From the IMG/VR virus record IMGVR_UViG_2541047898_000005, positions 1-17,431 of that record: DNA of 17,431 bases. One strand, 5' to 3'. Below are positions 1,345-17,431 of the stretch, in pieces. The stretch's first letter is position 1, and every line of letters begins with the position of its first letter. This DNA is from a virus. Its lineage: Duplodnaviria > Heunggongvirae > Uroviricota > Caudoviricetes. The notes beneath the pieces are model-generated. The model was not told the origin of the DNA. It did no database searches and was given only the letters and a program-made list of their open reading frames with translations. The position numbers and the translations under genes are program-made.

Positions 1345-1700
1345 TGGCCCGTATCGGGGGAACCTGTTATTTCAAAATTGACGGTCAGCAGCTATCGCTG
1401 ACCGGCGGCATTGAGGTGCCCATGAACAGGACGGTCAATGATGACATCATCGGCCTGGACGGCTCAGTGGACCGCAAGGAAACTCACCGTGCGCCTTATG
1501 TCAAAGGGACCTTCAAGGTGCCGAAGAATTTTCCGGTGAGCAAAATCACCTCGTCTGATGAGATGACCATCACTGCCGAGCTGGCGAACGGTCAGGTCTA
1601 TGTATTGTCGTCCGCCTGGCTGCACGGAGAAGCGAACCATAATGCCGAAGAAGGCACGGTTGATCTTGAGTTCCACGGTGAAGAAGGGGATTACCAGTAA
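1344..1700 (+). CDS. Tail tube protein (Mu gpM-like)
   Basis: 118-aa ORF with ATG overlapping the upstream stop (TAATG) and a GAGGAG Shine-Dalgarno; sits between the sheath and chaperone genes. Confidence 0.6.
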   Translation: MARIGGTCYFKIDGQQLSLTGGIEVPMNRTVNDDIIGLDGSVDRKETHRAPYVKGTFKVPKNFPVSKITSSDEMTITAELANGQVYVLSSAWLHGEANHNAEEGTVDLEFHGEEGDYQ

Positions 1701-1969
1701 TGAAAGAGCTTGAGTTAAAGAAACCGATTATCGCTCATGGTGAGACACTCTCCGTACTGGAGTTTGATGAACCCACCGGGAAGGATGTCCGCGAGCTGGG
1801 GTATCCCTACCAGATGAATCAGGATGAGTCCGTCAGACTTCTGGCGCATGTGGTGTCGAAATACATTGTGCGGCTGGCGAAAGTGCCGCAAAGCTCTGTC
1901 GACCAGATGTCTCCGGCAGACCTGAATGCAGCGGCGTGGCTTGTGGCTGGTTTTTTCCTCCAGGCCTGA
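1700..1969 (+). CDS. Tail assembly chaperone (lambda G-like short product)
   Basis: 89-aa ORF, TAATG overlap with the tube gene, immediately upstream of the tape-measure gene; contains the slippery heptamer T_TTT_TTC at 1951-1957. Confidence 0.6.
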   Translation: MKELELKKPIIAHGETLSVLEFDEPTGKDVRELGYPYQMNQDESVRLLAHVVSKYIVRLAKVPQSSVDQMSPADLNAAAWLVAGFFLQA

Positions 1970-2118
1970 CGGCTGAATACCTCACTGATCGCTTCTTTGA
2001 CTGCGCCAGCTACTGGCGCATTAATCCCTTCGAATTGCTGAATATGCCGATCAGTGAAATTCCCTTGCTGGTCAGTCAGGCAAACAGGATAGAGCAGGAG
2101 AAACGCACACATGGCTGA
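1700..2118 (+). CDS. Tail assembly chaperone frameshift fusion (lambda GT-like), made by -1 slippage at 1951-1957
   Basis: ORF 1936-2118 is in the -1 frame relative to 1700-1969 and overlaps it across the X_XXY_YYZ heptamer T_TTT_TTC. The fused reading would be ...LVAGFF then PPGLTAEY... The extension ends 7 nt into the tape-measure gene. Confidence 0.5.
1951..1957 (+). other. Slippery heptamer TTTTTTC for programmed -1 ribosomal frameshift
   Basis: Zero-frame codons GGT TTT TTC; after a -1 slip the next codon is CCT (1957-1959), which continues ORF 1936-2118. Confidence 0.5.
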
Positions 2119-4063
2119 ATTTGAGCTTAAGGCGTTGATCACCGGTGTCGACAGGCTTTCTCCCGCGCTGTCGAAAATGCAAAAGAAAATCCGGGGATTT
2201 AAACGCCAGGCGGAAGAAGCGTCACAGGGTGGGCTGGCGCTTGGTGGCGGACTGGCAGCGGGGCTGACGCTTTCCCTGAAATCTTATGCCGATCAGGAAA
2301 ACGCCGCTACCGGGCTGAAAGTCGCCATGATGGATGCGAACGGCGAGGTTGGAAAGAGCTTTCAGGACATCAATAAACTGGCTATTGGCCTGGGTAACCA
2401 GCTACCCGGTACAACGGCTGATTTCCAGAACATGATGCAGATGCTGGTGCGTCAGGGGATCCCGGCAGAAAACATTCTGGGTGGTGTGGGTAAAGCGACA
2501 GCTTATCTTGCGGTACAACTGAAAAAAACACCGGAAGCGGCTGCCGAGTTTGCCGCAAAGATGCAGGATGCTACCGGAACGGCCTCAGAAGACATGATGG
2601 GGCTGTTCGACACAATTCAGAAGGCGTTTTATCTGGGCGTTGACGACACCAACATGCTGTCATTCTTCACTAAAACCAGCTCTGTTCTGAAGATGGTGAA
2701 TAAGGACGGTCTTCAGGCTGCACAGAGTCTTGCCCCCATCAGTGTCATGATGGATCAGATGGGGATGAACGGGGAGTCGGCAGGTAATGCCCTGCGAAAA
2801 GTTATCCAGTCCGGATTAAGCGTTAAGAAAATCAGGGACGTCAATAAAATCATGGCCCGCCAGAAACTCGGAGTACAGCTCGATTTTACTGATGGCAAAG
2901 GGAGTTTTGGTGGTCTTGATAACATGTTCAGGCAACTGGCAAAGCTGCGAAAACTGACCGACGTTAAGCGAACCGGTGTACTTAAGGCAATATTTGGTGA
3001 TGATGCCGAAACCCTTCAGGTGGTCAATGCGCTGATCGATAAAGGAAAGGATGGCTACGATCAGATCCAGCAGAAGATGAATAAACAGGCCAGCCTGAAT
3101 AAACGTGTTCAGGCTCAGCTTGGTACGCTGTCCAACCTGTGGGAGGCAATGACGGGGACCGCAACTAACGGCCTTGCGGCTATTGGCGGCGCATTTTCTG
3201 GTGACGCTAAGAACATCACGCAGTGGCTGGGGGAGTTGGGGGAGAAATTCACGAAGTTTGCGGATGAAAATCCCCGGGTTATTCGCGGCGTCGTCGGGCT
3301 TGCTGCCGGTCTTGCGATTCTGAAACTGGGATTGATGGGCGTGGGCAGTGCCATCAGCATTGTCAGCAGGATCATGTCGATGACGCCGATTGGCATGATT
3401 GCGACGGCGATAGCCCTGGCTGCGGGATTAATTATCACCAACTGGGATGTTGTCGGACCTTATTTCAAGAAGCTCTGGGAAACCATTAGTCCTTATTTTG
3501 AGGCTGGCTGGGAACTCCTTAAGAAAGTTTTTGCCTGGTCGCCGCTGGGGATGGTGATCAATAACTGGGGGCCGGTTGTTAAGTGGTTTCAGGATATGTG
3601 GGACAAGCTGAAGCCAATTATTGAGTGGTTTACCGACAGTTCCGGTGACACGGTCGATGCCATTAACTCTGCGCAGTGGGGCGCGGGTGCTTATGATGCT
3701 TATGGGACGGGAATACCGCCACGGGGATACACTCCTTATCCGGCGCAGTCAAACAACGCCTCCGGTGACACGGTCGATGCCATTAACTCGGCGCAGTGGG
3801 GCGCGGGTGCTTATGATGCTTATGGGACGGGAATACCGGCGCGGGGATACACACCTTATCCGGCGGTAGATCCGGCTCAGTCAAACAACGCCTCCGATGC
3901 CACAGGCTCGAATCCCTTCATGATTAATAAAGCTACCGCGCCAAAAGTTGATGGTGAGATCAAGGTATCATTTATAAATATGCCACCAGGTATGCGGGTT
4001 ACGGAAACACGCTCCAGTGGCATTGATATAAATCACGATGTTGGCTATACCCGATTTTGGTAG
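2111..4063 (+). CDS. Tail tape measure protein
   Basis: 650-aa ORF directly after the frameshifted chaperone pair; Ala/Gly-rich helical N-terminal part, hydrophobic central stretch (GVVGLAAGLAILKLGLMGVGSAISIV...), CAGGAG Shine-Dalgarno before the ATG. Confidence 0.8.
   Translation: MAEFELKALITGVDRLSPALSKMQKKIRGFKRQAEEASQGGLALGGGLAAGLTLSLKSYADQENAATGLKVAMMDANGEVGKSFQDINKLAIGLGNQLPGTTADFQNMMQMLVRQGIPAENILGGVGKATAYLAVQLKKTPEAAAEFAAKMQDATGTASEDMMGLFDTIQKAFYLGVDDTNMLSFFTKTSSVLKMVNKDGLQAAQSLAPISVMMDQMGMNGESAGNALRKVIQSGLSVKKIRDVNKIMARQKLGVQLDFTDGKGSFGGLDNMFRQLAKLRKLTDVKRTGVLKAIFGDDAETLQVVNALIDKGKDGYDQIQQKMNKQASLNKRVQAQLGTLSNLWEAMTGTATNGLAAIGGAFSGDAKNITQWLGELGEKFTKFADENPRVIRGVVGLAAGLAILKLGLMGVGSAISIVSRIMSMTPIGMIATAIALAAGLIITNWDVVGPYFKKLWETISPYFEAGWELLKKVFAWSPLGMVINNWGPVVKWFQDMWDKLKPIIEWFTDSSGDTVDAINSAQWGAGAYDAYGTGIPPRGYTPYPAQSNNASGDTVDAINSAQWGAGAYDAYGTGIPARGYTPYPAVDPAQSNNASDATGSNPFMINKATAPKVDGEIKVSFINMPPGMRVTETRSSGIDINHDVGYTRFW
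3641..3892 (+). repeat. In-frame tandem duplication inside the tape-measure gene (unit 1 = 120 bp at 3641-3760; unit 2 = 132 bp at 3761-3892 with a 12-bp insertion)
   Basis: Near-identical DNA copies encode SGDTVDAINSAQWGAGAYDAYGTGIP(P/A)RGYTPYPA...QSNNA twice; read directly from the sequence. Confidence 0.9.
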
Positions 4064-4091
4064 CCAGGATTCCCCTCACATGTATTGCTGG

Positions 4092-4119
4092 TTGTAAGTC
4101 ATAAATAGAGTGATAGAAT
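4092..4119 (+). promoter_or_regulatory. Putative sigma70 promoter for the moron gene (-35 TTGTAA 4092-4097, 16-nt spacer, -10 TAGAAT 4114-4119)
   Basis: Hexamer match and spacing, about 35 nt upstream of the ATG at 4155; no experimental support. Confidence 0.3.
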
Positions 4120-4154
4120 TAATGCACATTTAGAAAAATGTTAATAGGCGAAAA

Positions 4155-4685
4155 ATGAAAGGCTATATCACAGCAAGTGTAATTCTTGGAGCAGCGGCTA
4201 TTTTTTCATCTCTCATAATCTCTGGCAACATCTCCTTTAAAGATGAACATATTATTCAGTTATCTGGAGGAGCCATAAAACTTGGTGATGTTTATAAAGA
4301 AAATAAATTGATAAGTGCAAAGATTATTTTTCCAGATAATCAGGGCGAACAGATTCTTGTTGTCGACGGCAATCCTGAAAACTTTAAGGAGGATTTTCAG
4401 GAGAAATTAAATAAAGTAATAAAAACTTTAAATGCGTCAAAGAAAAAAGATGAAGAGAAAGTTAGCCTGGATAATTTAAGTGTTATTGAAGAGTCTAAAC
4501 TAGAGCTCGTTTCTGCGGTGCGTTACTCTGCTCAGTATGTTCCTATGTTTACTCTGACGCTGGACAAAAAAGAAATTACCATGCCTAAAAATACGGTAAT
4601 ATTTCCATTTGCCAGCGATGAAACAGCTAAGTATTTAAATGAACAACAGCAAAAGTATAAAGATTCGTTGTTTCTGACTCGCTAA
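4155..4685 (+). CDS. Hypothetical secreted or membrane-anchored protein (moron inserted in the tail module)
   Basis: 176-aa ORF, visibly AT-rich and Lys-rich compared with the flanking tail genes. N-terminal hydrophobic segment (ITASVILGAAAIFSSLIISG) suggests a signal peptide or TM anchor; there is no Cys, so not a lipoprotein. Flanked by its own candidate promoter and a rho-independent terminator. Confidence 0.6.
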   Translation: MKGYITASVILGAAAIFSSLIISGNISFKDEHIIQLSGGAIKLGDVYKENKLISAKIIFPDNQGEQILVVDGNPENFKEDFQEKLNKVIKTLNASKKKDEEKVSLDNLSVIEESKLELVSAVRYSAQYVPMFTLTLDKKEITMPKNTVIFPFASDETAKYLNEQQQKYKDSLFLTR

Positions 4686-4702
4686 TTAATAAAATTCATT
4701 AC

Positions 4703-4736
4703 AAGGCCACCTTCTAATAGGTGGCTTTTTTATTTT
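4703..4736 (+). terminator. Rho-independent terminator after the moron gene
   Basis: Stem GCCACC (4706-4711) pairs with GGTGGC (4720-4725) around an 8-nt loop, followed by TTTTTTATTTT (4726-4736). Confidence 0.6.
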
Positions 4737-4746
4737 CGGAGTGTAT

Positions 4747-6117
4747 ATGACGTGGAAAGACAGGCTTCAGGATGCGTCATTTCGAGGTGTGCCGTTTAAG
4801 GTTGAAGAAGAAAGTGCGGGAACCGGCCGTCGTGTGGAAACACACGAATATCCGAACCGCGACAAACCCTATACCGAAGATCTGGGAAAAGTCACTTTCC
4901 GCCCGTCCATCACGGCTTATGTGGTGGGAGATGACTGCTTTGACCAGCGCGATCGCCTGATTGACGCGCTGAATAAACCCGGTCCCGGCACGCTTGTCCA
5001 TCCGACTTACGGTGAGCTGAAAGTCTGTGTTGACGGGGAAGTTCGGGTCAGCACATCGAAGAGTGAAGGGCGTATTGTCCGCTTTGACCTGAAGTTTGTC
5101 GAAGCGGGAGAACTCTCTTATCCCACTTCAGGTGCGGCGACGGCGCAGACGCTGATGTCATCCTGTTCTGCACTGGATGACTGCATCAGTGACAGCTTCA
5201 GTGGTTTCAGTATCGATGGCGTGGCGGATTTTGTGCAGAACGACGTCGTCGGTAATGCCGGCACAATGCTGGGGTATGTTTCTGATGCGATGAAAGTGGT
5301 GGATTCTGCCGTATCGGATGCCGCCAGGCTGTTGCAGGGGGATATCTCGGTACTTCTGCCGCCGCCATCGTCAGGCAAAAATTTCGTTGAGCAGGTGCAG
5401 AAAATGTGGCGTACCGGGAAACGCCTTTATGGTAACGCCAGCGACCTGGTCACCATGATCAAAACGCTTTCCGGTGTCAGCCTCGGCAGCGATCTGCAAC
5501 CGCGCGGCGTCTGGAAAACGGACAGTAAAACCACCGCCACGGCGACGCAGCAGCGTAACGTGGTTGCCAGCACCCTTCGTGCGACCGCAATCAGCGAAGC
5601 GGCGTATGCCGTCACCCGATTGCCTGCGCCAACAACTTCCGCGGTGATGCAGAATGCCGCAGTGGGGCAGTCAACAACTTCCGCGGTGATGCAGAATGCC
5701 GCAGTGGGGCAGGCAACAACACCCGCGCAGAGCACTGGCTGGCCTTCCGTCACGCATCCGGCACTGAACAATGCTCCGGCGGTGAAAAGCACGGTTGACC
5801 TGCCGACGTGGGAAGAACTGACTGACATTCGCGACACACTGAATACGGCAACTGATAAGGAGTTGTCCCGTACAACCAGTGATGCGCTGTTTCTGGCGCT
5901 GCGCCGGGTGAAAGCAGATCTGAATGCGGATATCAACACGCGCCTTGAACAGTCTGCACGGATCATTCAGCGCACGCCGGATGAGGTTTTACCCGCGCTG
6001 GTGCTGGCGGCGACCTGGTTTGATAACGCGGCGCGTGACGCGGACATTATCCGGCGTAATGCCATTACGCATCCCGGCTTTGTGCCGGTGATCCCTCTGA
6101 AGGTGCCAGTGCAATGA
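4747..6117 (+). CDS. DNA circulation protein (Mu gpN / gp43-like)
   Basis: Position after the tape-measure gene in Mu order; N-terminus MTWKDRLQDASFRGVPF... matches my memory of the Mu N family. ATG at 4747 has a GGAG Shine-Dalgarno; the track's GTG at 4741 is less likely. Confidence 0.65.
   Translation: MTWKDRLQDASFRGVPFKVEEESAGTGRRVETHEYPNRDKPYTEDLGKVTFRPSITAYVVGDDCFDQRDRLIDALNKPGPGTLVHPTYGELKVCVDGEVRVSTSKSEGRIVRFDLKFVEAGELSYPTSGAATAQTLMSSCSALDDCISDSFSGFSIDGVADFVQNDVVGNAGTMLGYVSDAMKVVDSAVSDAARLLQGDISVLLPPPSSGKNFVEQVQKMWRTGKRLYGNASDLVTMIKTLSGVSLGSDLQPRGVWKTDSKTTATATQQRNVVASTLRATAISEAAYAVTRLPAPTTSAVMQNAAVGQSTTSAVMQNAAVGQATTPAQSTGWPSVTHPALNNAPAVKSTVDLPTWEELTDIRDTLNTATDKELSRTTSDALFLALRRVKADLNADINTRLEQSARIIQRTPDEVLPALVLAATWFDNAARDADIIRRNAITHPGFVPVIPLKVPVQ
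5632..5715 (+). repeat. 42-bp in-frame tandem duplication (2 units) inside the DNA-circulation gene
   Basis: acaacttccgcggtgatgcagaatgccgcagtggggcag(t/g)ca twice, encoding TTSAVMQNAAVGQ(S/A) twice. Confidence 0.9.
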
Positions 6118-7193
6118 ACGATAACGTCACGCTACGGGTAAATGGCCGAGAGTGGAATGGCTGGACATCGGTGCGCATCGGTGCCGGTATTGAACGGCTG
6201 GCGCGGGATTTCAGCGTGGAGATCACCCGCCAGTGGCCGGGAGATGAGGGTATCACCACGCTTCAGCCGCGCATTAAAAATGGTTCAAAAGTGGAAGTGC
6301 TGATTGGTGATGAGCTGGTGATCACCGGCTGGGTGGAGTCGACCCCCGTTCGTTACGATGCCCGTTCGGTCAGCACCGGTATTGCCGGACGTAGTCTGAC
6401 TGCTGACCTGATTGACTGTGCAGCCGAACCGACACAGTTTAACGGACGATCGCTGGTACAGATTGCGCAGGCGCTTGCTGCGCCTTTCGGCATTGAGGTG
6501 GTGAACAGCGATGCGCCGTCGGGTGTTATTCCGGATGTCCAGCCTGATCACGGTGAAACGGTGATCGAAGTGATCAACAAAATACTCGGTCAGCAGCAGG
6601 CGCTGGCTTATGACGACCCGCACGGCAGGCTGGTGATTGGTGGTATTGGCTCAACGCGGGCACATACCGCGCTGGTACTTGGGGAAAACATCCTTTCCTG
6701 TGATACGGAGAAGAGTATCCGGGAGCGGTTTTCAGTTTACCAGGTGGCGGGGCAGCGTGCCGGAAACGACGATGATTTCGGTGAGGCCACCACCACCGCG
6801 CTGCGGGCCCGCACAGAGGATGCATTTATTGCCCGTTACCGTCCGATGTATATCAGGCAGACAGGGCAGGCTACGGGGGCAGGCTGTATTGCGCGTGCTG
6901 ACTTTGAAGCCCGACAACGGGCGGCGCGGACGGATGAAACCACCTATGTGGTGCAGGGCTGGCGACAGGGTAACGGTACGCTGTGGCAGCCCAACCAGCG
7001 GGTGATTGTCTTCGATCCGGTCTGTGGTTTCGACAATACCGAACTGCTTGTCTCGGAAGTCACGTTTACTCAGGACCAGAATGGCACCCTGACGGAAATC
7101 CGTGTCGGCCCACCTGATGCTTATCTGCCTGAACCCGAAGCCCCCGGCGCGCGGAAAAAGAAAAAAGCCAGAGTACAGGAGGACCCGTTCTGA
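6114..7193 (+). CDS. Baseplate hub / tail protein (Mu gpP / gp44-like)
   Basis: 359-aa ORF with ATGA overlap to the upstream gene; synteny between the DNA-circulation and spike genes. Confidence 0.55.
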   Translation: MNDNVTLRVNGREWNGWTSVRIGAGIERLARDFSVEITRQWPGDEGITTLQPRIKNGSKVEVLIGDELVITGWVESTPVRYDARSVSTGIAGRSLTADLIDCAAEPTQFNGRSLVQIAQALAAPFGIEVVNSDAPSGVIPDVQPDHGETVIEVINKILGQQQALAYDDPHGRLVIGGIGSTRAHTALVLGENILSCDTEKSIRERFSVYQVAGQRAGNDDDFGEATTTALRARTEDAFIARYRPMYIRQTGQATGAGCIARADFEARQRAARTDETTYVVQGWRQGNGTLWQPNQRVIVFDPVCGFDNTELLVSEVTFTQDQNGTLTEIRVGPPDAYLPEPEAPGARKKKKARVQEDPF

Positions 7194-7741
7194 TGAGGAC
7201 GATTGAAGCCATGCAGCGACAACTTCTCGGCCTGATTGGGCGGGCCGTGGTGAAAAGCATCAGTGCCGCCACGAAATGTCAGACCGTGGATGTGTCCCTG
7301 ATTGCCGGTGAACCCAAAGCCGGGGTTGAACATCTTGAACCCTACGGTTTTACCGCAAGGGCAAACAGCGGTGCGGAAGCGGTGGTGTTGTTTCCGGATG
7401 GCGACCGTTCTCATGCGGTGGTTGTTACGGTGTCGGACCGGCGCTACCGCCTGAAAGGGCTGCAGACGGGTGAGGTGGCTGTCTATGACGATCAGGGGCA
7501 GTCCGTGACGCTGACCCGGGAGGGGATCGTGGTGGACGGTGCAGGGAAAACGATCACGTTTCGCAATGCACCTGAAGCACGTTTTGAAATGGATCTGGAA
7601 GTGACCGGACAGGTGAAAGACCTGTGCGACTCCGGCGGCACCACCATGTCAGCGATGCGGCTTGCCTATAACGGGCATCGTCACAGAGAGAACGGTCAGG
7701 GTAGTAACACCGACAAACCTGATAAAGCGATGGAGGCATGA
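7193..7741 (+). CDS. Baseplate spike / assembly protein V-like (Mu gp45-like)
   Basis: 182-aa ORF with TGATG overlap; position and size fit the gpV-type spike in Mu/P2 baseplate modules. Confidence 0.55.
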   Translation: MRTIEAMQRQLLGLIGRAVVKSISAATKCQTVDVSLIAGEPKAGVEHLEPYGFTARANSGAEAVVLFPDGDRSHAVVVTVSDRRYRLKGLQTGEVAVYDDQGQSVTLTREGIVVDGAGKTITFRNAPEARFEMDLEVTGQVKDLCDSGGTTMSAMRLAYNGHRHRENGQGSNTDKPDKAMEA

Positions 7742-8166
7742 TGGAACTGTGGCTGACGGTGAACGGTAAACGCACCTGCGCCAGCGCACCGCTGGATCCG
7801 CTGACCCGCGCCGTGGTGATTTCCCTGTTCACCTGGCGGCGGGCGGAGCCTGATGACAATGCCGACGTCCCGATGGGATGGTGGGGGGATACCTGGCCTG
7901 CGGTACAGAATGACCGTTACGGCTCCCGACTGTGGCTGCTTCAGCGCAGCAAACTGACCAATCAGCTGGTGCAGACGGTAAGGGGATATATCCGCGAATG
8001 CCTGCAATGGATGACTGATGACGGCGTGGTGTCCCGTATTGATCTGGATATCCGCCGCACCGGGATTAATGAACTGGGTAACAGTATCACTCTCTGGCGT
8101 CGTGACGGACCGGTAATGATTTCTTTTGATGATCTGTGGAGTGCGATAACGCATGGCGGACAGTGA
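7738..8166 (+). CDS. Baseplate wedge protein, gp25/GPW-like (Mu gp46-like)
   Basis: 142-aa ORF, translationally coupled (ATGA overlap), sitting between the spike and the J-like gene. Confidence 0.55.
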   Translation: MMELWLTVNGKRTCASAPLDPLTRAVVISLFTWRRAEPDDNADVPMGWWGDTWPAVQNDRYGSRLWLLQRSKLTNQLVQTVRGYIRECLQWMTDDGVVSRIDLDIRRTGINELGNSITLWRRDGPVMISFDDLWSAITHGGQ

Positions 8167-9211
8167 ATTTCAGCGCCCGACGCTGGCAGAAAATATCAGT
8201 ATGCTCCGTAACGATTTATTCGCCAGGCTGGACGTCAGCGACACGCTCCGGCGCATGGATGAAGACGTGCGGGCAAAGGTGTATGCGGCGGCGCTGCATA
8301 CGGTTTACGGTTACATCGATTATCTGGCAATGAACATGCTGCCTGACCTGTGCGATGAGTCCTGGCTGGCGCGACATGCTGCGATGAAACGGTGTCCGCG
8401 CAAGGGGGCCACGACTGCCAGCGGGTATATGCGCTGGGAAGGTGTCAGCGATGGCCTGAAGGTGACCGCCGGGAGTGTTATTCAGCGCGATGACCTGGTT
8501 CAGTACACGGCAACTTCTGATGCAACCAGCTCAGGTGGAGTCCTGCGCGTGCCGATCGCCTGCTCAACTGCAGGCGCGGTCGGTAACGCTGACGACGGTA
8601 CGGCATTAATCCTGGTCACGCCGGTGAATGGTCTGCCGTCTTCCGGTGTGGCAGATACCCTGACTGGCGGATTCGATACTGAAGATCTGGAAACGTGGCG
8701 CGCCCGCGTCATTGAGCGGTATTACTGGACGCCGCAGGGCGGGGCTGACGGGGACTATGTCGTCTGGGCTAAAGAAGTGCCCGGCATTACCCGCGCATGG
8801 ACATACCGTCACTGGATGGGAACGGGAACTGTCGGTGTGATGATTGCCAGCAGTGACCTGATTAATCCCATTCCGGAAGAATCAACGGAAACGGCGGCAA
8901 GACAACACATTGAGCCACTGGCCCCGGTGGCAGGCTCTGATTTGTATGTGTTCAGGCCGGTGGCGCATACTGTGGATTTTCATATCCGCGTGACGCCGGA
9001 CACACCCGAAATACGGGCTGCCATCACCGCCGAGTTGCGTTCGTTCCTGCTGCGTGATGGTTATCCGCAGGGAGAACTGAAGGTGTCACGTATCAGTGAA
9101 GCGATTTCCGGTGCGAACGGGGAATACAGCCATCAGTTGCTTGCACCGGCAGACAATATCTCCATTGCAAAAAATGAGCTGGCAGTTCTGGGGACGATTT
9201 CATGGACGTGA
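8153..9211 (+). CDS. Baseplate J-like protein (Mu gp47 / P2 gpJ-like)
   Basis: 352-aa ORF in the expected position; overlaps its neighbours in the way coupled baseplate genes do. Confidence 0.6.
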
Positions 9212-9786
9212 CAAACGATGATTACATCCGTCTGTTGTCGGCGCTGCTGCCGCCCGGTCCGGCGTGGTCAGCCAGCGATCCGGCGATTGCCGGTGCGGCA
9301 CCGTCATTAACCCGCGTTCATCAGCGTGCGGATGCCCTGATGCGGGAGCTGGATCCGCGCACCACCACCGAACTGATAAATCGCTGGGAGCGTCTGTGCG
9401 GCCTGCCGGATGAATGTAATCCCGCAGGGACACAGACCCTTCGCCAGCGTCAGCAACGGCTGGATGCGAAGGTTAACCTGGCGGGTGGCATCAACGAGGA
9501 TTTTTATCTTGCACAGCTCGCTGCCCTGGGCAGACCAGATGCCGCCATCACGCGATACGACAAAAGCACGTTCACCTGCTCATCAGCCTGCACTGACGCT
9601 GTGAATGCGCCGGAATGGCGGTATTACTGGCAGGTCAACATGCCAGCCGCCACCAACACCACCTGGATGACATGTGGCGATCCCTGTGATTCCGCACTGC
9701 GTATCTGGGGGGACACCGTTGTCGAGTGTGTGCTTAACAAACTCTGCCCGTCGCATACCTACGTAATTTTTAAATATCCGGAGTAA
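9202..9786 (+). CDS. Tail/baseplate protein, Mu gp48 / P2 gpI-like (YmfQ-like)
   Basis: 194-aa ORF immediately upstream of the tail-fibre gene; same length and position as the e14 ymfQ product as I recall it. Confidence 0.55.
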
Positions 9787-9789
9787 TCC

Positions 9790-10293
9790 ATGCATCGTAT
9801 AGACACGAAAACCGCGCAGAAGGATAAGTTCGGCGCGGGTAAGAACGGTTTTACCCGTGGTAACCCCCAGACCGGCACGCCTGCCACCGATCTGGATGAT
9901 GACTACTTTGACATGTTGCAGGAGGAGCTTTGCAGCGTTGTGGAGGCATCCGGTGCCAGCCTGGAGAAGGGGCGGCACGACCAGTTGCTTACCGCGCTTC
10001 GTGCGCTGCTGTTAAGCCGCAAGAATCCGTTTGGCGATATCAAATCGGATGGCACGGTGAAAACGGCTCTCGAAAACCTTGGTTTGGGAGAAGCGGCTAA
10101 ACGAAATGTGGGAGCACCTGATCATCGGATTCCAGACATATCTGCATCAGGCTCTGGCAAATACAACTGTGAGGTATCTTGTGCTCAAAATGACCCAGAG
10201 TTGTCAAAGGATTTTCCTGGGAAGGAATCAACTGAATCAAGAGGTAATTTTATTATTGGATGTGATGACGGCGCAGGGGTTGATACAGGCTGA
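9790..10293 (+). CDS. Tail fibre protein: constant N-terminal part (9790-10096) fused to the currently expressed variable C-terminal cassette (10097-10293)
   Basis: ORF runs across the left inverted repeat into the invertible segment. The post-repeat C-terminus resembles the minus-strand cassette at the other end (GEAAKR...SGKYN...ESRG(N/K)F). Confidence 0.6.
10079..10096. repeat. Left inverted repeat / putative recombination crossover site of the invertible segment (ttggtttgggagaagcgg)
   Basis: Perfect 18-bp inverted repeat with 11911-11928, lying inside the tail-fibre ORF and next to a Gin/Pin-family invertase gene. Confidence 0.85.
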
Positions 10294-10997
10294 TGTTCAG
10301 TGGGTACTCAAGCCGCAGCGCCGGCCTAGAAACTTATTCCGTTTGTGGCAACCAAGGGATAAGAATCAATAGAAGTATCAGACCGGGCGGCTATGTATAG
10401 AAGAGTAAATATGGAAATAGGAGGATTTTATGCATCAGCAGACTTAGGGCGCCTGGGCCAATCACTGACACGTTATTAATTAAGAAAACACTTTAATACT
10501 GGCTGGAACGAGGCCTGTTGATGCATTAGTTCATCTAGCTGAAATGTGAGTGATATATATGGGAGAACGCCGAATAGGAAAGAGCCCAGATTGCTAGGAA
10601 GATGGTTAACATAACTGGCTATAAATACCTCGGTGATACGAGGGAGAATTTATTTACAAGGACTGATCAGATAGCAATGGGTGTCGGAACTCGACCAAAT
10701 TCCTCTTTAACCGTAAATAGTAGCCCGGTGACTGGGTTAATGATTTGCCGATAGGTGAGGAACAGGCCCTGTATATATTTTGCCTACAATAGCGGTGGGA
10801 ACGTGTGCAGGATGATAATGGCGGGGGCCAAGAAAATGACTGCCCTAGGCGACTGGCCGTAAAGGCCAACTGCCGTCCGCCGGGGAGCTCGTAACTGTAA
10901 CTGGCATCGCGTAAAAGTGATCACGGACAGTGTTAAGTATGATTGTGCCGGAGTAGGTCCGGCTGAGTCCCGGCTGCAGTCACTGTTTAATCCGGCT

Positions 10998-11009
10998 GAG
11001 GGTACCCTC
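10998..11009. repeat. Perfect 12-bp palindrome gagggtaccctc at the exact centre of the invertible segment
   Basis: Symmetry axis falls between 11003 and 11004, which equals (10079+11928)/2. Confidence 0.9.
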
Positions 11010-11644
11010 TGTTTCATCCAACTGAGATTGGAGCTCTGCTTTAAACGCTCCTACGCCGGAACCGTCTTATTTCTCAGTGTCTTGCACCAAATTTACGCCG
11101 TCACAGTAACAGAATCCCGTTAACCGCCGGATAGCGGTTGTACTGAACGGCCAGTGGCGTAGGCCTTTCATTACTTTGCCATCCCGCGGTTTGAAGCTAC
11201 ACACGTGCCTACCGAGATGGTCTCACAAAATTTCATTGCATTTGAACCCCACAGAACAGCCGACTATAAGAGGCGCCATCGGTCTACTGTTAGCGTCTAA
11301 AGAGTTAGATGCCCGGATACCTACATACTCGCCTAGATGATTCGTTGATGTAGATATATATTCCCTCTGATCGTGGACGTATTTATAGACAGGTGGGTAC
11401 CCCGCTTTCCTATTAAACTCGTCTTTTCTCTATACGGCGTTATCCAATATATTGTACAGAAAATACATTTAGATGCACTATTTCATGGGCGGGTCACGCT
11501 CCATTCACTACATCAGATTTTCTCACATTAACGGAGTGAAGGTCATTTGATGAGAGTCACTAAGGAAGTGGATTCATCAAGCCTCCTTCCTTGGGTATAC
11601 GTAGTTCTAAACATACCAGTTCGTGCCGATTCTTCTTTTGTGTC

Positions 11645-11928
11645 TTACGTATCTTTTGTGATAACCGCCTTACGGTGCTTGGCCGGCGCACCGGCTAGTG
11701 TACTCTCTGAAAATCGTCCTCTATCAATAACTGCCCCGGCAGCCAAGGCAAGAGGAAACTTACCGCGAGATTCGTGAGATTTCGCTCTTTGATCATCCTT
11801 CGCAAACTTCGGGTATATATCACCACTAAGTAACTGAAAGTTGTATTTGCCAGATCGAAATGGAGATATAGCTGAAATCTGTTGATCAGGTATTCCAACA
11901 GTTCGTTTTGCCGCTTCTCCCAAACCAA
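11645..11928 (-). CDS. Alternative tail-fibre variable C-terminal cassette (promoterless; would fuse to the constant part after inversion)
   Basis: Minus-strand frame open from the right inverted repeat to a stop at 11645, encoding GEAAKRTVGIPDQQISAISPFRSGKYNF...ESRGKF..., parallel to the plus-strand cassette. Confidence 0.45.
11911..11928. repeat. Right inverted repeat / putative recombination crossover site (reverse complement of 10079-10096)
   Basis: ccgcttctcccaaaccaa is the exact reverse complement of ttggtttgggagaagcgg. Confidence 0.85.
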
Positions 11929-11994
11929 CGTTTATGAAAATGAAGAAATAACAAGCAAATGGCATCATTCCTGCTTTTACCAGGGGGATTTAAC

Positions 11995-12549
11995 ATGCTT
12001 ATTGGCTATGTACGTGTATCAACAAATGACCAGAATACCGATCTACAACGTAATGCGCTGAACTGTGCAGGATGTGAGCTGATTTTTGAAGACAAGATAA
12101 GCGGTACAAAGTCCGACAGACCAGGACTGAAAAAGCTGCTCAGGACATTATCGGCAGGTGACACGCTGGTGGTCTGGAAACTGGACCGACTGGGGCGCAG
12201 TATGCGGCATCTTGTCGTGCTGGTGGAGGAGTTGCGCGAACGAGGCATCAACTTTCGTAGTCTGACGGATTCAATTGATACCAGTACCCCAATGGGGCGC
12301 TTTTTCTTTCATGTGATGGGTGCCCTGGCTGAAATGGAGCGTGAACTGATTGTTGAACGAACAAAAGCTGGACTGGAAGCTGCTCGCGCACAGGGACGAA
12401 TTGGTGGACGTCGCCCCAAACTTACACCAGAACAATGGGAGCAGGCCGGACGATTAATTGCAGCAGGAATTCCTCGCCAGAAGGTAGCGATCATCTATGA
12501 TGTTGGTGTATCGACACTGTATAAGATGTTTCCGGTCGGAGATAAATGA
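11995..12549 (+). CDS. pin: Site-specific DNA invertase, serine recombinase of the Gin/Hin/Pin/Cin family
   Basis: 184-aa product beginning MLIGYVRVSTNDQNTDLQRNAL... with the catalytic Ser in the YVRVST motif, ...VVWKLDRLGRSM..., and a C-terminal HTH-like region (GIPRQKVAIIYDVGVSTLYK). It matches the Gin/PinE sequences I remember closely. GGGGGA Shine-Dalgarno 6 nt upstream. The track's upstream Met (11959) is probably not the start. Confidence 0.9.
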   Translation: MLIGYVRVSTNDQNTDLQRNALNCAGCELIFEDKISGTKSDRPGLKKLLRTLSAGDTLVVWKLDRLGRSMRHLVVLVEELRERGINFRSLTDSIDTSTPMGRFFFHVMGALAEMERELIVERTKAGLEAARAQGRIGGRRPKLTPEQWEQAGRLIAAGIPRQKVAIIYDVGVSTLYKMFPVGDK

Positions 12550-12716
12550 AACCGCAGGCTCGTCGTATGCAAGAACGTGCTGCGGCTGGCTGGTGAACTT
12601 CCGATAGTGCGAGTATTGAATGATTTACAGCCGTTATTGATTTTACATATTTTTTGTATGAAAGGATTAGCGCCTCCTCCCACCGATCCTCCATGACTTT
12701 ACGCCACTGTCTCTCG

Positions 12717-12741
12717 GACTGCTATGTGCCAGGAGCGGATG
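12717..12741. repeat. Junction motif copy A (ggactgctatgtgccaggagcggatg)
   Basis: Shares gct(a/c)tgtg(c/t)caggagcgga(t/c)g with the copy at 14257-14281; located between pin and the first cargo gene. Confidence 0.5.
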
Positions 12742-12792
12742 CGACCCATCGGCATGTTTTAGTCGTCGCAAGCAAATCATAACGGTTAATTG

Positions 12793-12822
12793 TTGAGTAG
12801 ATTTTTCATGTCAATTTATATT
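12793..12822 (+). promoter_or_regulatory. Possible sigma70 promoter for the 432-aa cargo gene (TTGAGT, 18 nt, TATATT)
   Basis: Weak hexamer matches in an AT-rich leader; AAGGAAG Shine-Dalgarno before the ATG at 12882. Low confidence. Confidence 0.2.
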
Positions 12823-12881
12823 ATTGTAGATAAGTCTGATAAAAATTTCAGTCACATCCTCTTGGATAATAAGGAAGTTAT

Positions 12882-14180
12882 ATGAAAGCTCGTTTAATAC
12901 CACCGTACGAAAACTACACTGGCAATGTTTTATGGCGAAAAGAGGATTTTATTAATAAAGTCGACGATATCTCAACATCTCTAAAAAAGTTAAGAGATAT
13001 GGGATATTGGGCCAGTGCCTATCCTGAAGGAGATGGCATTACATTTAAATATACCAAGGATAGTTATCAAAAAAGCAGTATCGAAATTCTAGAAGACTTC
13101 TCAATATGCTTTGAGTGGGTAGAAATAGAGTTAGCTAAATCAAGAAGCTCTAACCTAGAATTAGCTGAATTAGAGGGTAAAAACAAAAATATGGAGTGCA
13201 TAGTTATTGTGCCGATTGAGAAGATTTTCATTCAGGAAACCATCGAGATCGGAAAGTATATTTTTTATTGCGGAAGACAATTTGATGAAGAGTCACATAA
13301 GCGATTATCAGAGCAAGATGGTTCGTATATACAGTTTAACTGTGACCTACCATATATTGATTTATTAAAACTTAATTCAAGCATTGATCATAACAGCCAT
13401 GTTATAAACATGTGTTTATCTATAGCTGAATATGCGCTTGATTTAGTCAGATTTTCTCACAGCTCATTTACACGTATGGAATATACCCCTAATCCTGCAG
13501 GTCAACGCTCTGACGGATTTTATGATGTAGAAATCATTCCTCGTGAGAGGACTCATCTTAAACCAATTAAGATAAGTGGAATATCAAGACCCCTTGCTGT
13601 GAGTAATAATTGGCTAGGCCCTCAGGTTGACAGCTTGTATTACCCTGGGTTGCAATATTTATCTTCTATCTACGATGGAGTCGTTGAAAATGAACTTTCA
13701 AAATTAGTTAGCTCCGTAGTTAGGGCATGTAGGCAATCTTTTTATTCAATTGGCGCGGAATCACAATTTCTAAACCTAGTCTTTGCACTTGATGGTCTTG
13801 CTAATATTGACCCAAATTGGAAAGGATGGAAGCAAAGGACCTACATTGCAGCACTTACATGTAATAACTCACTAATCAAATTTAAGAAAAACCTAGAAGT
13901 TTATGACGAGTTATATACTGACGTAAGAAACAAGCTTGTTCATGATGGTAAAGATTTTTACGAACTTAACGTCAACGCGAACGAATCCTCTGAACAAATC
14001 TTTAAGTATATTAAGATAATTATAATACTCATCGAAAGTAACGGCTTTTCCACTTTGCAAGAATTGAGAGATTATGCAGTTCACCTACTTCAGCAGGAGG
14101 ATTATAGAACTGCTTCTGTTGAGATAATTGACAAAGTATCTCTTTTAAGAGGAAAAAAACCTAATTATCCTTCATGGTGA
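12882..14180 (+). CDS. Hypothetical cargo protein with a C-terminal HEPN-like R-x4-H motif (candidate abortive-infection RNase)
   Basis: 432-aa AT-rich ORF with a strong Shine-Dalgarno. Motif DVRNKLVHDG fits the HEPN R-[NQ]-x3-H signature, about 90 residues from the C-terminus in a predicted helical region. Family assignment is inference. Confidence 0.45.
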   Translation: MKARLIPPYENYTGNVLWRKEDFINKVDDISTSLKKLRDMGYWASAYPEGDGITFKYTKDSYQKSSIEILEDFSICFEWVEIELAKSRSSNLELAELEGKNKNMECIVIVPIEKIFIQETIEIGKYIFYCGRQFDEESHKRLSEQDGSYIQFNCDLPYIDLLKLNSSIDHNSHVINMCLSIAEYALDLVRFSHSSFTRMEYTPNPAGQRSDGFYDVEIIPRERTHLKPIKISGISRPLAVSNNWLGPQVDSLYYPGLQYLSSIYDGVVENELSKLVSSVVRACRQSFYSIGAESQFLNLVFALDGLANIDPNWKGWKQRTYIAALTCNNSLIKFKKNLEVYDELYTDVRNKLVHDGKDFYELNVNANESSEQIFKYIKIIIILIESNGFSTLQELRDYAVHLLQQEDYRTASVEIIDKVSLLRGKKPNYPSW

Positions 14181-14256
14181 TTAAATCAACGTGCTAATTA
14201 ATTTTTAATATAACTTCTGCTCCTCGCTCTCAGCGGACCTTCAGCTCAGTGATATC

Positions 14257-14281
14257 GTCCGCTCTGTGTCAGGAGCGGACG
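14257..14281. repeat. Junction motif copy B, forming a hairpin (stem GTCCGCTC/GAGCGGAC, loop tgtgtcag) between convergent cargo genes
   Basis: 8-bp perfect stem read from the sequence; no U-tract, so not a canonical intrinsic terminator. Left half matches copy C, right half matches copy A. Confidence 0.5.
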
Positions 14282-14373
14282 TTACTGACATCACAATGTG
14301 TTAATCAATGGAGAGCAGGTCACCATAATGTCATGGGTATCGCTGGTGATATGATCGCAATACACGACAATTA

Positions 14374-15063
14374 TTATTTAATTATTTTAAAAAGTTCATT
14401 GTAGCTACAACCTTTGAATATTTCGAACTGATCATGGTAATTTGAATAAGCGCTTGCCATCATTCCGATATAACTATCCCATGATGACTCAGAAACTACC
14501 ATTTCACCACGCTCTAATTCATCAATTAAAATATAAATGATATTAAATTGTGCAACAAGAGCAGTGTAGGTGGTGATGAGATTATTTAGAAGGTCTGAAT
14601 GATTAGGTTTGATTTTCCACAAACCAAAACTATCCCGAATTGCAACTAATTCGAATCGTAAATCTTTTGACTCAGAAAGTAACTCCCTCCCACTTGTAGT
14701 GAGATGCTTGTAGAGTATGGGGTTCTCACTTTTTATTCTTGGCTGTATAGAAATAAGTGATTGATAACATTGATGATTTAAGTCCTTTGATCGAAACATG
14801 CTGTCGATGAACAATGTAGTTCTCTCGAAAGCCTTTTCTGATTTTTTGTTTTTAATCCATTCATTTACCCTTGTTAATGCATAAATCGCTAGTCCAAGTG
14901 TTATTGTTGAAACTGTTGCAGTAATTGTTGATGGTTCAATTTTTTTAAAAAACCAGATATCAATCCATGCAAAAGAGACTGAGCCGAGATACATAAACAA
15001 CATGTGACTCGCGAAGTATTCCCAAACACCTTTTAAATAGCTTTTCATGTAGATCCTTAACAT
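14374..15063 (-). CDS. Hypothetical membrane protein (two N-terminal TM helices plus a ~150-aa cytoplasmic domain); real start probably the internal Met at 15048
   Basis: AT-rich ORF. Hydrophobic segments MLFMYLGSVSFAWIDIWFF and ITATVSTITLGLAIYAL. The ATG whose reverse complement is at 15046-15048 has an AAGGA Shine-Dalgarno 5 nt upstream, whereas the first ATG has none. Confidence 0.5.
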   Translation of the reverse strand: MLRIYMKSYLKGVWEYFASHMLFMYLGSVSFAWIDIWFFKKIEPSTITATVSTITLGLAIYALTRVNEWIKNKKSEKAFERTTLFIDSMFRSKDLNHQCYQSLISIQPRIKSENPILYKHLTTSGRELLSESKDLRFELVAIRDSFGLWKIKPNHSDLLNNLITTYTALVAQFNIIYILIDELERGEMVVSESSWDSYIGMMASAYSNYHDQFEIFKGCSYNELFKIIK

Positions 15064-15217
15064 TTTCTTAATTATATTTTATGGTGGTATTTTTGTTAGT
15101 ATCGGTATGGATTAGAAATAGTTGATACTTTTATGCCCTGAGAGCATGAAAACTGGAAAAGCCTTGCTCATGATATAAATAGTGTTAGTTGCCACTGCTT
15201 TGGAAGTTATCCTTTAA

Positions 15218-15412
15218 ATGGGCTATCGGAAAGCCAGACTTCTAGCAGATGCTGAATCCGTGATTTTGCCGCTGGAGCGCGCTGTCAGGCTGAATATGGC
15301 AACAGATGAGGAGCGCAGTCGACTGGAGGCATGGGAACGCTACAGCGTTCTGGTCAGTCGTGTGGATCCTGCAAATCCTGAATGGCCGGAAATGCCGCAA
15401 GAAGTTGTATGA
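15218..15412 (+). CDS. Hypothetical small protein (64 aa; Glu/Arg-rich, predicted helical)
   Basis: ORF with normal (non-AT-rich) composition inside the 640-bp spacer between two cargo genes; no recognisable motif. May be a gene fragment. Confidence 0.25.
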
Positions 15413-15438
15413 GCTCTGGTGTGAGCTTACATATCTAT

Positions 15439-15478
15439 GGCACAGAGTAAAGCCTAATCTGACAGTCCGCTCTGTGCC
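15439..15478. repeat. Junction motif copy C within a 9-bp-stem hairpin (ggcacagag ... ctctgtgcc, 22-nt loop)
   Basis: Contains gtccgctctgtgcc, which shares 12 contiguous nt with copy B; lies between the membrane-protein gene and the RES-like gene. Confidence 0.5.
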
Positions 15479-15702
15479 GAAGCTAGCAAAGCCATGGTCC
15501 TTTCGCAGCAAGTTGCGTAAATAAGGCGTTTTTATCTCTTGAAGCATTCTACAAAGCCAACTCCTCGCTCAAACAGACGTGTCTGTTCAGCAATCTGCCC
15601 GCTTGGTATCAAGGGACGCCAGTAACGCGATACCGGGTGAATTCCTTCCTTAACTGCCCTCACATCATCTTTAATAATAGTTTACCCTGATATAACGGAT
15701 GA

Positions 15703-17082
15703 TCAGAAGTCAATCAGGTCATCGAATTTCTGAGGTGGCTCTTGTTTTCGAACGCTATCTCCCTGATGAATCTCCGTCTCACTTGTTTGGTATTTTACAC
15801 CAGTAATTTTATGATAAGTCATACTGTTGGTTTTCAACAGTAGTGCATCATTTTTGTCATGCGAGGATGAAAATGAACCCATATGTCTCGGTTTTATTTG
15901 TTCCTCAACTATCAACTGAATTTCCGGAACAAAAGCATACTGGTCATCTTCGATGTGTTCATACATCTCAACATTATATCGGCGAGATTTATCTGCGGCA
16001 TGCCTGACGCCGGAAGACTTATTAAACAGAACGACATTATATCCTGTCTCAGCATCCTCACCGTTGGCATCTACCTGGGTAGATTTAAAGCTGACACCAT
16101 CAAGCTTAAATTTATTTCGGTCACCTAGGTAATCGGCAACCACTTGGGTGATGAGGTAATCACTGTCCTGCCTTTTTCCAAAAGTAGGAAGCGTCAACTT
16201 ACGGGAAAGCGTACTGAAAAAAATCGCGCGCTCACTGGTTTTGCGAGTCTGAGGATCAAATTTACTACCTGAGCCGAAACTAATCGAGTCAAGGGCAGAA
16301 ATGTCCAGCACTTTTAGCTCGCGTAACGGTACAAAACAGGCCGTTACTACAATACTGCCGACGGGCGGCCTTACTTCAGCAATTGCCAAATTCACTGAGG
16401 TTGCACCGTAAAATACTGAAATCCCCTGTGCGTTCATACGGCCCGAGCGAGCCAAAGTTGTTGGGGGAGGTCCAAAATTTTTCTCGGGATGCTCCAAGGC
16501 TTGCTTTACTTCCTCTTGGTCCTCAAAAACCCTTGCACGAAAAAGATGAACCTCATCAGTCAGAGTTTTTATCGGTGAATTACTGTCTCTGTTTTTTAGT
16601 TTATCGATATCACTGAAAAGTGAATCTAGGAAATCATTAACTTCACGGTTAAAATATCGTGTTTCTTTCATAAGGGAGTCAGTGGCTTTACTCCAGGTAT
16701 GCGCAAGCTCTCCGCTATAGTGATTTATGTGCCGATAAAGAAACCCGTCATTATACCGGATGTAGTCATAATCGTTATGCGGATTATATTCATCACAAAG
16801 AAATTCATAAATATCTTCAGCTACGTCCCATTCGACGCCCAGTTCTCCGTAGATGACATCCTGCGCGCTATCACCGCGCCCGGAATCATAGATATCCTCA
16901 TATATATCATAGTAGTACTCAAAAACCTCATTCATCATCTTGAGAATATATTTGAGGTGGATGTTTTTACGCTTCCTTTTGCAGTAAGAGCAAATCTGAA
17001 AATTATTTCCAGTTTTTATTATATGCTGCATGACATATTTATCGTTCACGCATTTATGACAAATATACTTATCTTCCCACAT
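15703..17082 (-). CDS. RES-domain-like protein with an N-terminal Cys4 zinc-ribbon-like motif (candidate NAD+-targeting effector)
   Basis: 459-aa AT-rich ORF. N-terminus has CHKC...CSYC. Central segment LFRARV...(~25 aa)...ARSGRMNAQGISVFYGATSVNLAIAEV...(later) VSFKS...YNVVLF fits my memory of the RES (Arg-Glu-Ser) core, G-R-x-N...G...Y.A......A..E. No HMM search run. Confidence 0.55.
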   Translation of the reverse strand: MWEDKYICHKCVNDKYVMQHIIKTGNNFQICSYCKRKRKNIHLKYILKMMNEVFEYYYDIYEDIYDSGRGDSAQDVIYGELGVEWDVAEDIYEFLCDEYNPHNDYDYIRYNDGFLYRHINHYSGELAHTWSKATDSLMKETRYFNREVNDFLDSLFSDIDKLKNRDSNSPIKTLTDEVHLFRARVFEDQEEVKQALEHPEKNFGPPPTTLARSGRMNAQGISVFYGATSVNLAIAEVRPPVGSIVVTACFVPLRELKVLDISALDSISFGSGSKFDPQTRKTSERAIFFSTLSRKLTLPTFGKRQDSDYLITQVVADYLGDRNKFKLDGVSFKSTQVDANGEDAETGYNVVLFNKSSGVRHAADKSRRYNVEMYEHIEDDQYAFVPEIQLIVEEQIKPRHMGSFSSSHDKNDALLLKTNSMTYHKITGVKYQTSETEIHQGDSVRKQEPPQKFDDLIDF

Positions 17083-17278
17083 TTTTTACTCACTCATCAT
17101 CAGCTGATACAAGGTCACTTTCCTGCAATTTTATAATTAAATCAAGCATAAAAACCCTCTTCACACCTTAATGCTTTCAGTGTGAAAATAATTAGTGGTG
17201 CACTGTACTGATAATAATTACGAACTTCCGCTTCTCGCTCATAACAGACATTCACTACAGTTATGGTAGAAGGTATGT

Positions 17279-17431
17279 ATGCTGATTGGGGAAAGTGTGA
17301 AAGAAAAGAAGACTGCTGCGCTGTTTGTCGTCACCTTTATCTTCATTGGCTATGCAAGTCATAATACAAGGTGGGACAAAACTGAGACACATAAGGCCTC
17401 ACAATGGCTTGCAAGGCTTTACATGTTTTGA
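17279..17431 (+). CDS. Possible small membrane peptide (50 aa), divergent from the RES-like gene; ORF ends exactly at the window edge
   Basis: ATG at 17279 preceded by AGAAGG. Translation MLIGESVKEKKTAALFVVTFIFIGYASHNTRWDKTETHKASQWLARLYMF has one hydrophobic helix. Below the ORF-track length cut-off; weak support. Confidence 0.2.
   Translation: MLIGESVKEKKTAALFVVTFIFIGYASHNTRWDKTETHKASQWLARLYMF

Follow-up and report, generated by a model that had tools for sequence, protein, structure and literature searches.

What does the last gene of a prophage encode when it stands alone, and can one protein be expected to protect the lysogen? We address this question for a 17,431-nucleotide stretch of Caudoviricetes DNA (positions 1 to 17,431 of IMG/VR record IMGVR_UViG_2541047898_000005, hereafter the window), near the right end of which lies a gene for a protein of 459 amino acids (aa). 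The original prediction, made from the letters of the sequence, took this product for a candidate stand-alone NAD+-depleting effector against phages, with a zinc ribbon and a RES domain. We are highly confident that the gene is an aRES allele; aRES is a protein that defends bacteria against phages on its own and has recently been characterized in Escherichia coli and related bacteria.

Relationship to a characterized defence protein

The aRES proteins were defined as stand-alone proteins of 300-600 aa that combine a RES domain with a PF18870 domain (Osterman et al., bioRxiv 10.64898/2026.01.28.702374); the criterion for PF18870 was an HHsearch probability >80%, and the Methods of that preprint print 'PF00808', presumably a typographical error for PF08808. 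The aRES proteins of E. coli UC5, Klebsiella pneumoniae and Enterobacter chengduensis shielded E. coli MG1655 from diverse phages, with growth arrest. The protein acts alone, the lone gene being both clonable and defensive. Upon infection, aRES converts NAD+ into nicotinamide and ADP-ribose-1''-phosphate (ADPR-1''-phosphate); NAD+ falls during infection of aRES cells, and ADPR-1''-phosphate builds up in the infected cells and is the main product in infected-cell lysate. Point mutations in the predicted RES active site remove defence, the constructs in Table S4 being R182A, R184A, R215A, Y225A, E236A and S334A. Homologues of aRES were reported in ~4% of genomes (all from 10.64898/2026.01.28.702374).

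For comparison, the UC5 sequence was taken from Table S4 of the preprint, which provides the first 399 residues and the 3' 399 nt of the gene. The window protein matches UC5 aRES at 390 of these 399 residues, and when the C-terminus is translated from the Table S4 DNA, the two proteins differ at 10 of 459 residues, which corresponds to 97.8% identity. The substitutions (window residue first) are E3K, F28V, Q29R, I60M, Y78C, L115V, H198Q, T208S, T346I and I457M; none of them falls on an invariant column of the family or on a residue for which the preprint made a mutant, and R182, R184, R215, Y225, E236 and S334 occupy the same positions in both proteins. Identity is 75% to the Enterobacter protein and 45% to the Klebsiella protein.

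Most of the defining features of the family are recognizable in the window protein. Its length falls within the published range, a RES domain is present, and the unit of DNA shared between its contexts comprises one gene, with unrelated neighbours in six contexts. The PF18870 feature is almost certainly present as well, because UC5 aRES, with 97.8% identity, is the type member of the family. From this identity we infer that the window allele would confer phage resistance, deplete NAD+ and produce ADPR-1''-phosphate, and the same identity to a validated protein supports the predicted stand-alone NAD+-depleting activity.

Domain organization and conservation

Conservation was assessed by aligning 34 full-length homologues (31-86% identity) taken from the 772 that a database search returned. 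Most of the 772 are full-length, with ~450 aa, and belong to Proteobacteria, Bacteroidota and Actinomycetota; for many, precomputed annotation lists both Pfam domains. The original prediction had pointed to an N-terminal Cys4 motif and to a RES-like core, both of which are borne out. The motif reads C8-H-K-C11 ... C31-S-Y-C34, and C31 and C34 are invariant, whereas C8 and C11, like S334, are conserved in at least 90% of the aligned homologues. The blocks LFRAR, GRMNAQGISVFYGATSVNLAIAEV, VSFKS and NVVLF are all found in the protein, and the region from LFRAR to NVVLF holds the invariant residues R182, R184, G214-R215-M216-N217, Y225, E236 and N349 together with the nearly invariant S334; Y309, Q313, D328-G329 and Q336 are also invariant. 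The RES profile of Pfam (PF08808) matches residues 205-361 with E = 3.2e-14 and 53.7 bits (cutoff 23.2), a profile match that is well above chance level. The arginine of GRMN and the glutamate of AIAEV, which had been proposed as catalytic, both belong to the residues changed to alanine in the preprint's constructs. Within the alignment, RES is matched by 34 of 34 homologues and PF18870 by 25 of 34 (best E = 4.6e-11).

In the AlphaFold2 (AF2) model, a zinc ribbon (1-42) is followed by a helical domain (43-160) with helices at 43-57, 73-81, 85-99, 125-139 and 146-156, and the RES domain (~170-361) by a C-terminal extension rich in beta structure (362-430) and then by a tail of low confidence. 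The extension, which falls outside the Pfam RES envelope, has a beta-hairpin region at 369-390 and a strand at 414-425 before the tail; in the alignment, L414 is nearly invariant and an 'h-x-I-x-G-V' stretch is visible. When the Protein Data Bank (PDB) was searched by sequence, with phmmer for the protein and with the 34-sequence family profile, no RES chain was reached; kinship with the solved RES toxins emerged through structure comparison only. PADLOC 2.0 (2023), NCBIfam and PHROGs gave no match for the 459-aa protein, and aRES was published later than PADLOC 2.0. In a tblastn search of 50,697 phage genomes, the gene was found in no genome of that collection.

A single-gene unit in three prophage types

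The gene has a GC content of 41.4%, compared with 54.8% for the prophage structural genes (1-10000), in keeping with the AT-rich composition noted originally. It had also been placed at a prophage end next to the invertase gene pin, and this description needs one correction: no further gene separates aRES from the attR of the prophage, but it lies 3.1 kb from pin, which ends at 12549, with open reading frames (ORFs) at 12882-14180 (+) and 14374-15063 (-) and a tail-fibre-assembly fragment at 15218-15412 in between. The related prophage of E. coli 19SZHZ886Rt (L001) has an HK97-type head and a contractile tail and is integrated at tRNA-Thr (thrW) beside proA. attL and attR consist of the 3' end of tRNA-Thr, repeated directly over 56 bp with 98% identity, at 21998-22053 in L001 and at 20675-20730 in locus L004; the former, attR, is equivalent to window positions 17497-17552, just past the window end. 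The attR-proximal stretch 17217-17431 is common to many E. coli genomes, matching ~3,600 of 5,426, and the 1.9 kb around aRES is present in full in only 12 of the 5,426 complete genomes, in which the gene carries the annotation 'RES family NAD+ phosphorylase'.

The protein is identical to the window allele in both L001 and a P2-like prophage (L003). In the P2-like prophage, aRES lies between the tail-fibre-assembly and tail-sheath genes, and 2,993 bp (window 14257-17249) are 99.4% identical. An accessory/defence hotspot has been described in P2 tail genes (10.64898/2026.02.27.708500), and it is among the tail genes that aRES lies in L003. With the lambdoid prophage of E. coli PF9285 (L002), only window 15477-17249 is common (1,782-bp match, 97.2%), and the allele there is 100% identical to UC5 aRES. 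The right boundary of similarity is 17249 in both the lambdoid and the P2-like contexts. Thus, a 1.78-kb single-gene unit is found in three prophage types, and the smallest mobile unit adds to the gene only 167 bp on its upstream side and 226 bp on its downstream side. That the gene moves by itself is an independent indication that it functions alone and speaks against a hidden antitoxin. At the plasmid loci of more distant homologues, the neighbours are unrelated.

The P2-like prophage has an intact tail-fibre-assembly (tfa) gene, the 3' end of which shares 95% identity with the fragment at 15218-15412; the annotation of L001 and L003 lists this fragment as a pseudogene, and DNA comparison of the fragment with the window's own tfa genes revealed no similarity. 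We read the fragment as a recombination scar. The aRES cassette was probably brought in from a P2-like phage, because the fragment resembles the P2-like tfa and not the window's own.

In the lambdoid prophage, aRES is situated in the early region between a Lit-family phage-exclusion gene (10828-11751) and hokD (14240-14395), and these three genes form a small defence/toxin cluster.

Weighing the alternatives

The RES fold is common to the toxins MbcT, NatT and Res, and the gene could be the toxin of a type II RES toxin-antitoxin module with an overlooked antitoxin, serving persistence or element stabilization. More distant homologues are indeed frequent on plasmids, where such modules serve maintenance (782 records, 486 of them Klebsiella), and one homologue adjoins VapBC and ParDE modules; yet no neighbour is conserved on either side in the six contexts examined, and the mobile unit 15477-17249 contains this gene only. 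At 459 aa with two extra domains, the protein is about twice the size of RES toxins, as had been remarked, the solved chains of which span 144-250 residues. Moreover, the lone UC5 gene is clonable, defensive and activated only on infection (10.64898/2026.01.28.702374). Small ORFs in the flanks are limited to 15532-15663 (43 aa, GTG) and 17142-17255 (37 aa, GTG); we rejected both as hidden antitoxins, there being no conserved neighbour at any of the loci, and the latter begins outside the shared unit. An ORF of the Xre/DUF2384 antitoxin type, by which Xre-RES, MbcTA, NatRT and ParST systems are recognized, was absent from the flanks and was not annotated in any context, in agreement with the original statement that no obvious small antitoxin is adjacent. 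We consider the toxin-antitoxin explanation highly improbable. Hardly more credible to us is the idea that the RES domain is mainly a protein ADP-ribosyltransferase directed at one particular target of host or phage origin, in the way that ParT modifies Prs, with NAD+ loss being secondary; this is less likely given that the structure is nearer to MbcT and NatT and that ADPR-1''-phosphate has been measured.

A different concern is whether the window allele, through its ten substitutions, is inactive or differs from the UC5 allele in phage specificity. Six of the ten substitutions fall in the first 160 residues, the putative sensor, such that the phage range could differ, and the two alleles sit in different prophage types; this N-terminal enrichment does not reach significance (6/10, binomial p = 0.11). 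The ORF is uninterrupted and of full length, no invariant residue of the family has been lost, the identical protein has been kept in two prophage backgrounds and belongs to a cluster of 132 sequences, and aRES proteins only 75% and 45% identical to it still defend. An inactive or altered allele therefore appears unlikely to us. Besides the possible difference in phage range, several points count against assigning the window gene to aRES as a working defence protein. The function has been experimentally shown only for the UC5, Klebsiella and Enterobacter proteins; the source is a January 2026 preprint that precedes peer review, and it is silent on the trigger, on zinc and on the role of the N-terminal domain (10.64898/2026.01.28.702374). 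The profile search proposed with the original prediction recognized RES above its cutoff and the second domain below: PF18870 (HEPN_RES_NTD1) matches the window protein alone at aa 29-147 with E = 7.8e-4 and 20.2 bits, under the Pfam cutoff of 27.4. Finally, a promoter presumably lies in the 167-bp upstream region, but when the sequence preceding the gene was put through a simple scan on the coding strand, no consensus sigma-70 site emerged. Even with these points taken into account, our confidence in the aRES assignment remains high.

Table 1. Positions of the aRES gene, its parts and associated features in the window.
Feature	Position	Strand	Basis or remark
aRES gene	15703..17082	-	459 aa, ATG start; product identical to WP_021563595.1 ('RES family NAD+ phosphorylase')
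N-terminal Cys4 zinc ribbon, aa 1-42 (C8, C11, C31, C34)	16957..17082	-	cysteine positions, homologue conservation
Helical HEPN/RES-NTD1-like domain, ~aa 43-160, presumed sensor/regulatory module	16603..16956	-	Pfam, AF2 model
RES (ART-superfamily) catalytic domain, ~aa 170-361	16000..16575	-	R182, R184, R215, Y225, E236, S334, N349
C-terminal extension, aa 362-459	15706..15999	-	AF2 secondary structure and predicted local distance difference test (pLDDT)
167-bp upstream region, always moves with the gene	17083..17249	-	presumed own promoter and ribosome-binding site
226-bp downstream region, part of the minimal mobile unit 15477-17249	15477..15702	-	left boundary of the L002 match
Hypothetical protein, 229 aa, 33.5% GC, hydrophobic N-terminus	14374..15063	-	moves with aRES in cassette 14257-17249
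Tail-fibre-assembly fragment, C-terminal 64 codons	15218..15412	+	Caudo_TAP E 5.5e-18, profile positions 71-131/131

Other features of the window

The 229-aa ORF found no match in Pfam, NCBIfam, PADLOC, PHROG or PDB and is missing from the lambdoid context; we treat this putative membrane protein, which travels with aRES, as context only. The 432-aa ORF (12882-14180, +) is a candidate HEPN effector on the basis of its HEPN motif and is absent from the PADLOC (2023), Pfam, NCBIfam and PHROGs libraries searched; as a target it may offer more novelty than the aRES finding.

The pin-type serine invertase gene (11959-12549, +; Resolvase E = 1.6e-51) adjoins opposed tail-fibre and tail-fibre-assembly genes (~10500-11950), which together constitute the usual invertible host-range segment; simple searches around this segment identified no convincing gix-like crossover site or long inverted repeat. 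Between the tape-measure and DNA-circularization genes, an AT-rich pocket (34% GC, 4001-4500) accompanies a 176-aa hypothetical ORF (4155-4685, +) that looks like a moron inserted in the tail module. The tape-measure ORF (2111-4063, +) encodes 650 aa from the first possible start, as compared with 610 aa annotated in L001 (6712-8544). The window is 100 bp longer than the corresponding stretch of the otherwise near-identical L001 prophage.

Discussion

The mechanism that we envisage follows the steps demonstrated for the UC5 protein. In uninfected cells, aRES would be silent and tolerated; infection would trigger the cleavage of NAD+, with inorganic phosphate as the nucleophile, to yield nicotinamide and ADP-ribose-1''-phosphate, and the collapse of NAD+ would bring about growth arrest and the failure of phage propagation. 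The common phage NAD+-rebuilding pathway NARP1 would be unable to use this product because it is phosphorylated. According to the preprint, aRES resists NARP1 and is overcome by NARP2, by NARP1 together with the Macro phosphatase Adpp, or by aRad1 inhibitors (10.64898/2026.01.28.702374). Escape would accordingly be limited to NARP2, to NARP1 with a Macro-domain phosphatase, and to aRad1 inhibitors, which plug the active site. Neither aRad1 nor Adpp was recognizable in the carrier prophage: when its six-frame ORFs, and those of related loci, were searched with a hidden Markov model of the seven aRad1 proteins and, by phmmer, with Adpp, no match was better than E = 0.36.

The window allele presumably acts like UC5 aRES because all six of the residues mutated to alanine are conserved. 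It would be expressed from its own 167 bp of upstream DNA as a self-contained single-gene module, and the zinc-ribbon/NTD1 module, possibly together with the C-terminal extension, may keep the enzyme off and sense infection. Occupying the final gene position ahead of attR in a thrW prophage, aRES would guard the lysogen against superinfecting phages and thereby also the prophage.

We can also entertain a broader idea, which we hold only tentatively and think rather less than evenly probable: the zinc ribbon and NTD1 may constitute a portable phage sensor common to RES and HEPN effectors, with allele differences tuning phage recognition, and the attR-proximal 4.8-kb AT-rich region may be a small defence island built by cassette capture. 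Such an island would comprise aRES, the 229-aa putative membrane protein as a P2-like import and the 432-aa HEPN-motif protein.

The aRES system has already been described, and, as judged by sequence comparison, the gene is a near-identical copy of its known type member. Our analysis adds little new biology in placing a described defence protein in one more prophage; it also shows that a reading of the raw sequence alone arrived at an answer established by experiment. The occurrence of two natural alleles in three prophage types backs the claim of stand-alone function and documents the traffic of cassettes from prophage to prophage. In addition, this pair of alleles, most differences of which are N-terminal, is a ready tool to map the aRES trigger.

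Among known systems, UC5 aRES is the closest: it shares the length of 459 aa, the order of zinc ribbon/NTD1, RES domain and C-terminal extension, and the stand-alone position in mobile or defence DNA. The two alleles differ in setting, that of UC5 being in a lambdoid prophage and that of the window at the thrW attR end and in the P2-like tail-gene hotspot. The type II RES toxins (MbcT/Rv1989c, NatT, Pseudomonas putida Res and VPA0770) have the RES fold in common with the window protein; however, these small single-domain toxins, with solved chains of 144-250 residues, are neutralized by an adjacent antitoxin, whereas the 459-aa window protein is without a partner gene and has additional parts of ~160 aa at its N-terminus and ~100 aa at its C-terminus.

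The architecture itself was catalogued in 2013 (Anantharaman et al., PMC3710099) as fusions of HEPN/RES-NTD1 with RES and a further N-terminal zinc ribbon, RES being predicted to be an RNase. These fusions, in which a mostly helical N-terminal domain (now Pfam PF18870) precedes RES, correspond to the layout of the window protein; their function was left blank in that work, and the N-terminal domain is elsewhere joined to HEPN RNases, unlike in the window protein. Functionally, aRES resembles DSR1/DSR2 and the SIR2, TIR and SEFIR effectors in that infection triggers NAD+ loss and growth arrest through a single polypeptide serving as sensor and NADase. Those effectors use an unrelated catalytic fold and release ADP-ribose, which NARP1 can recycle, whereas the RES domain makes ADPR-1''-phosphate.
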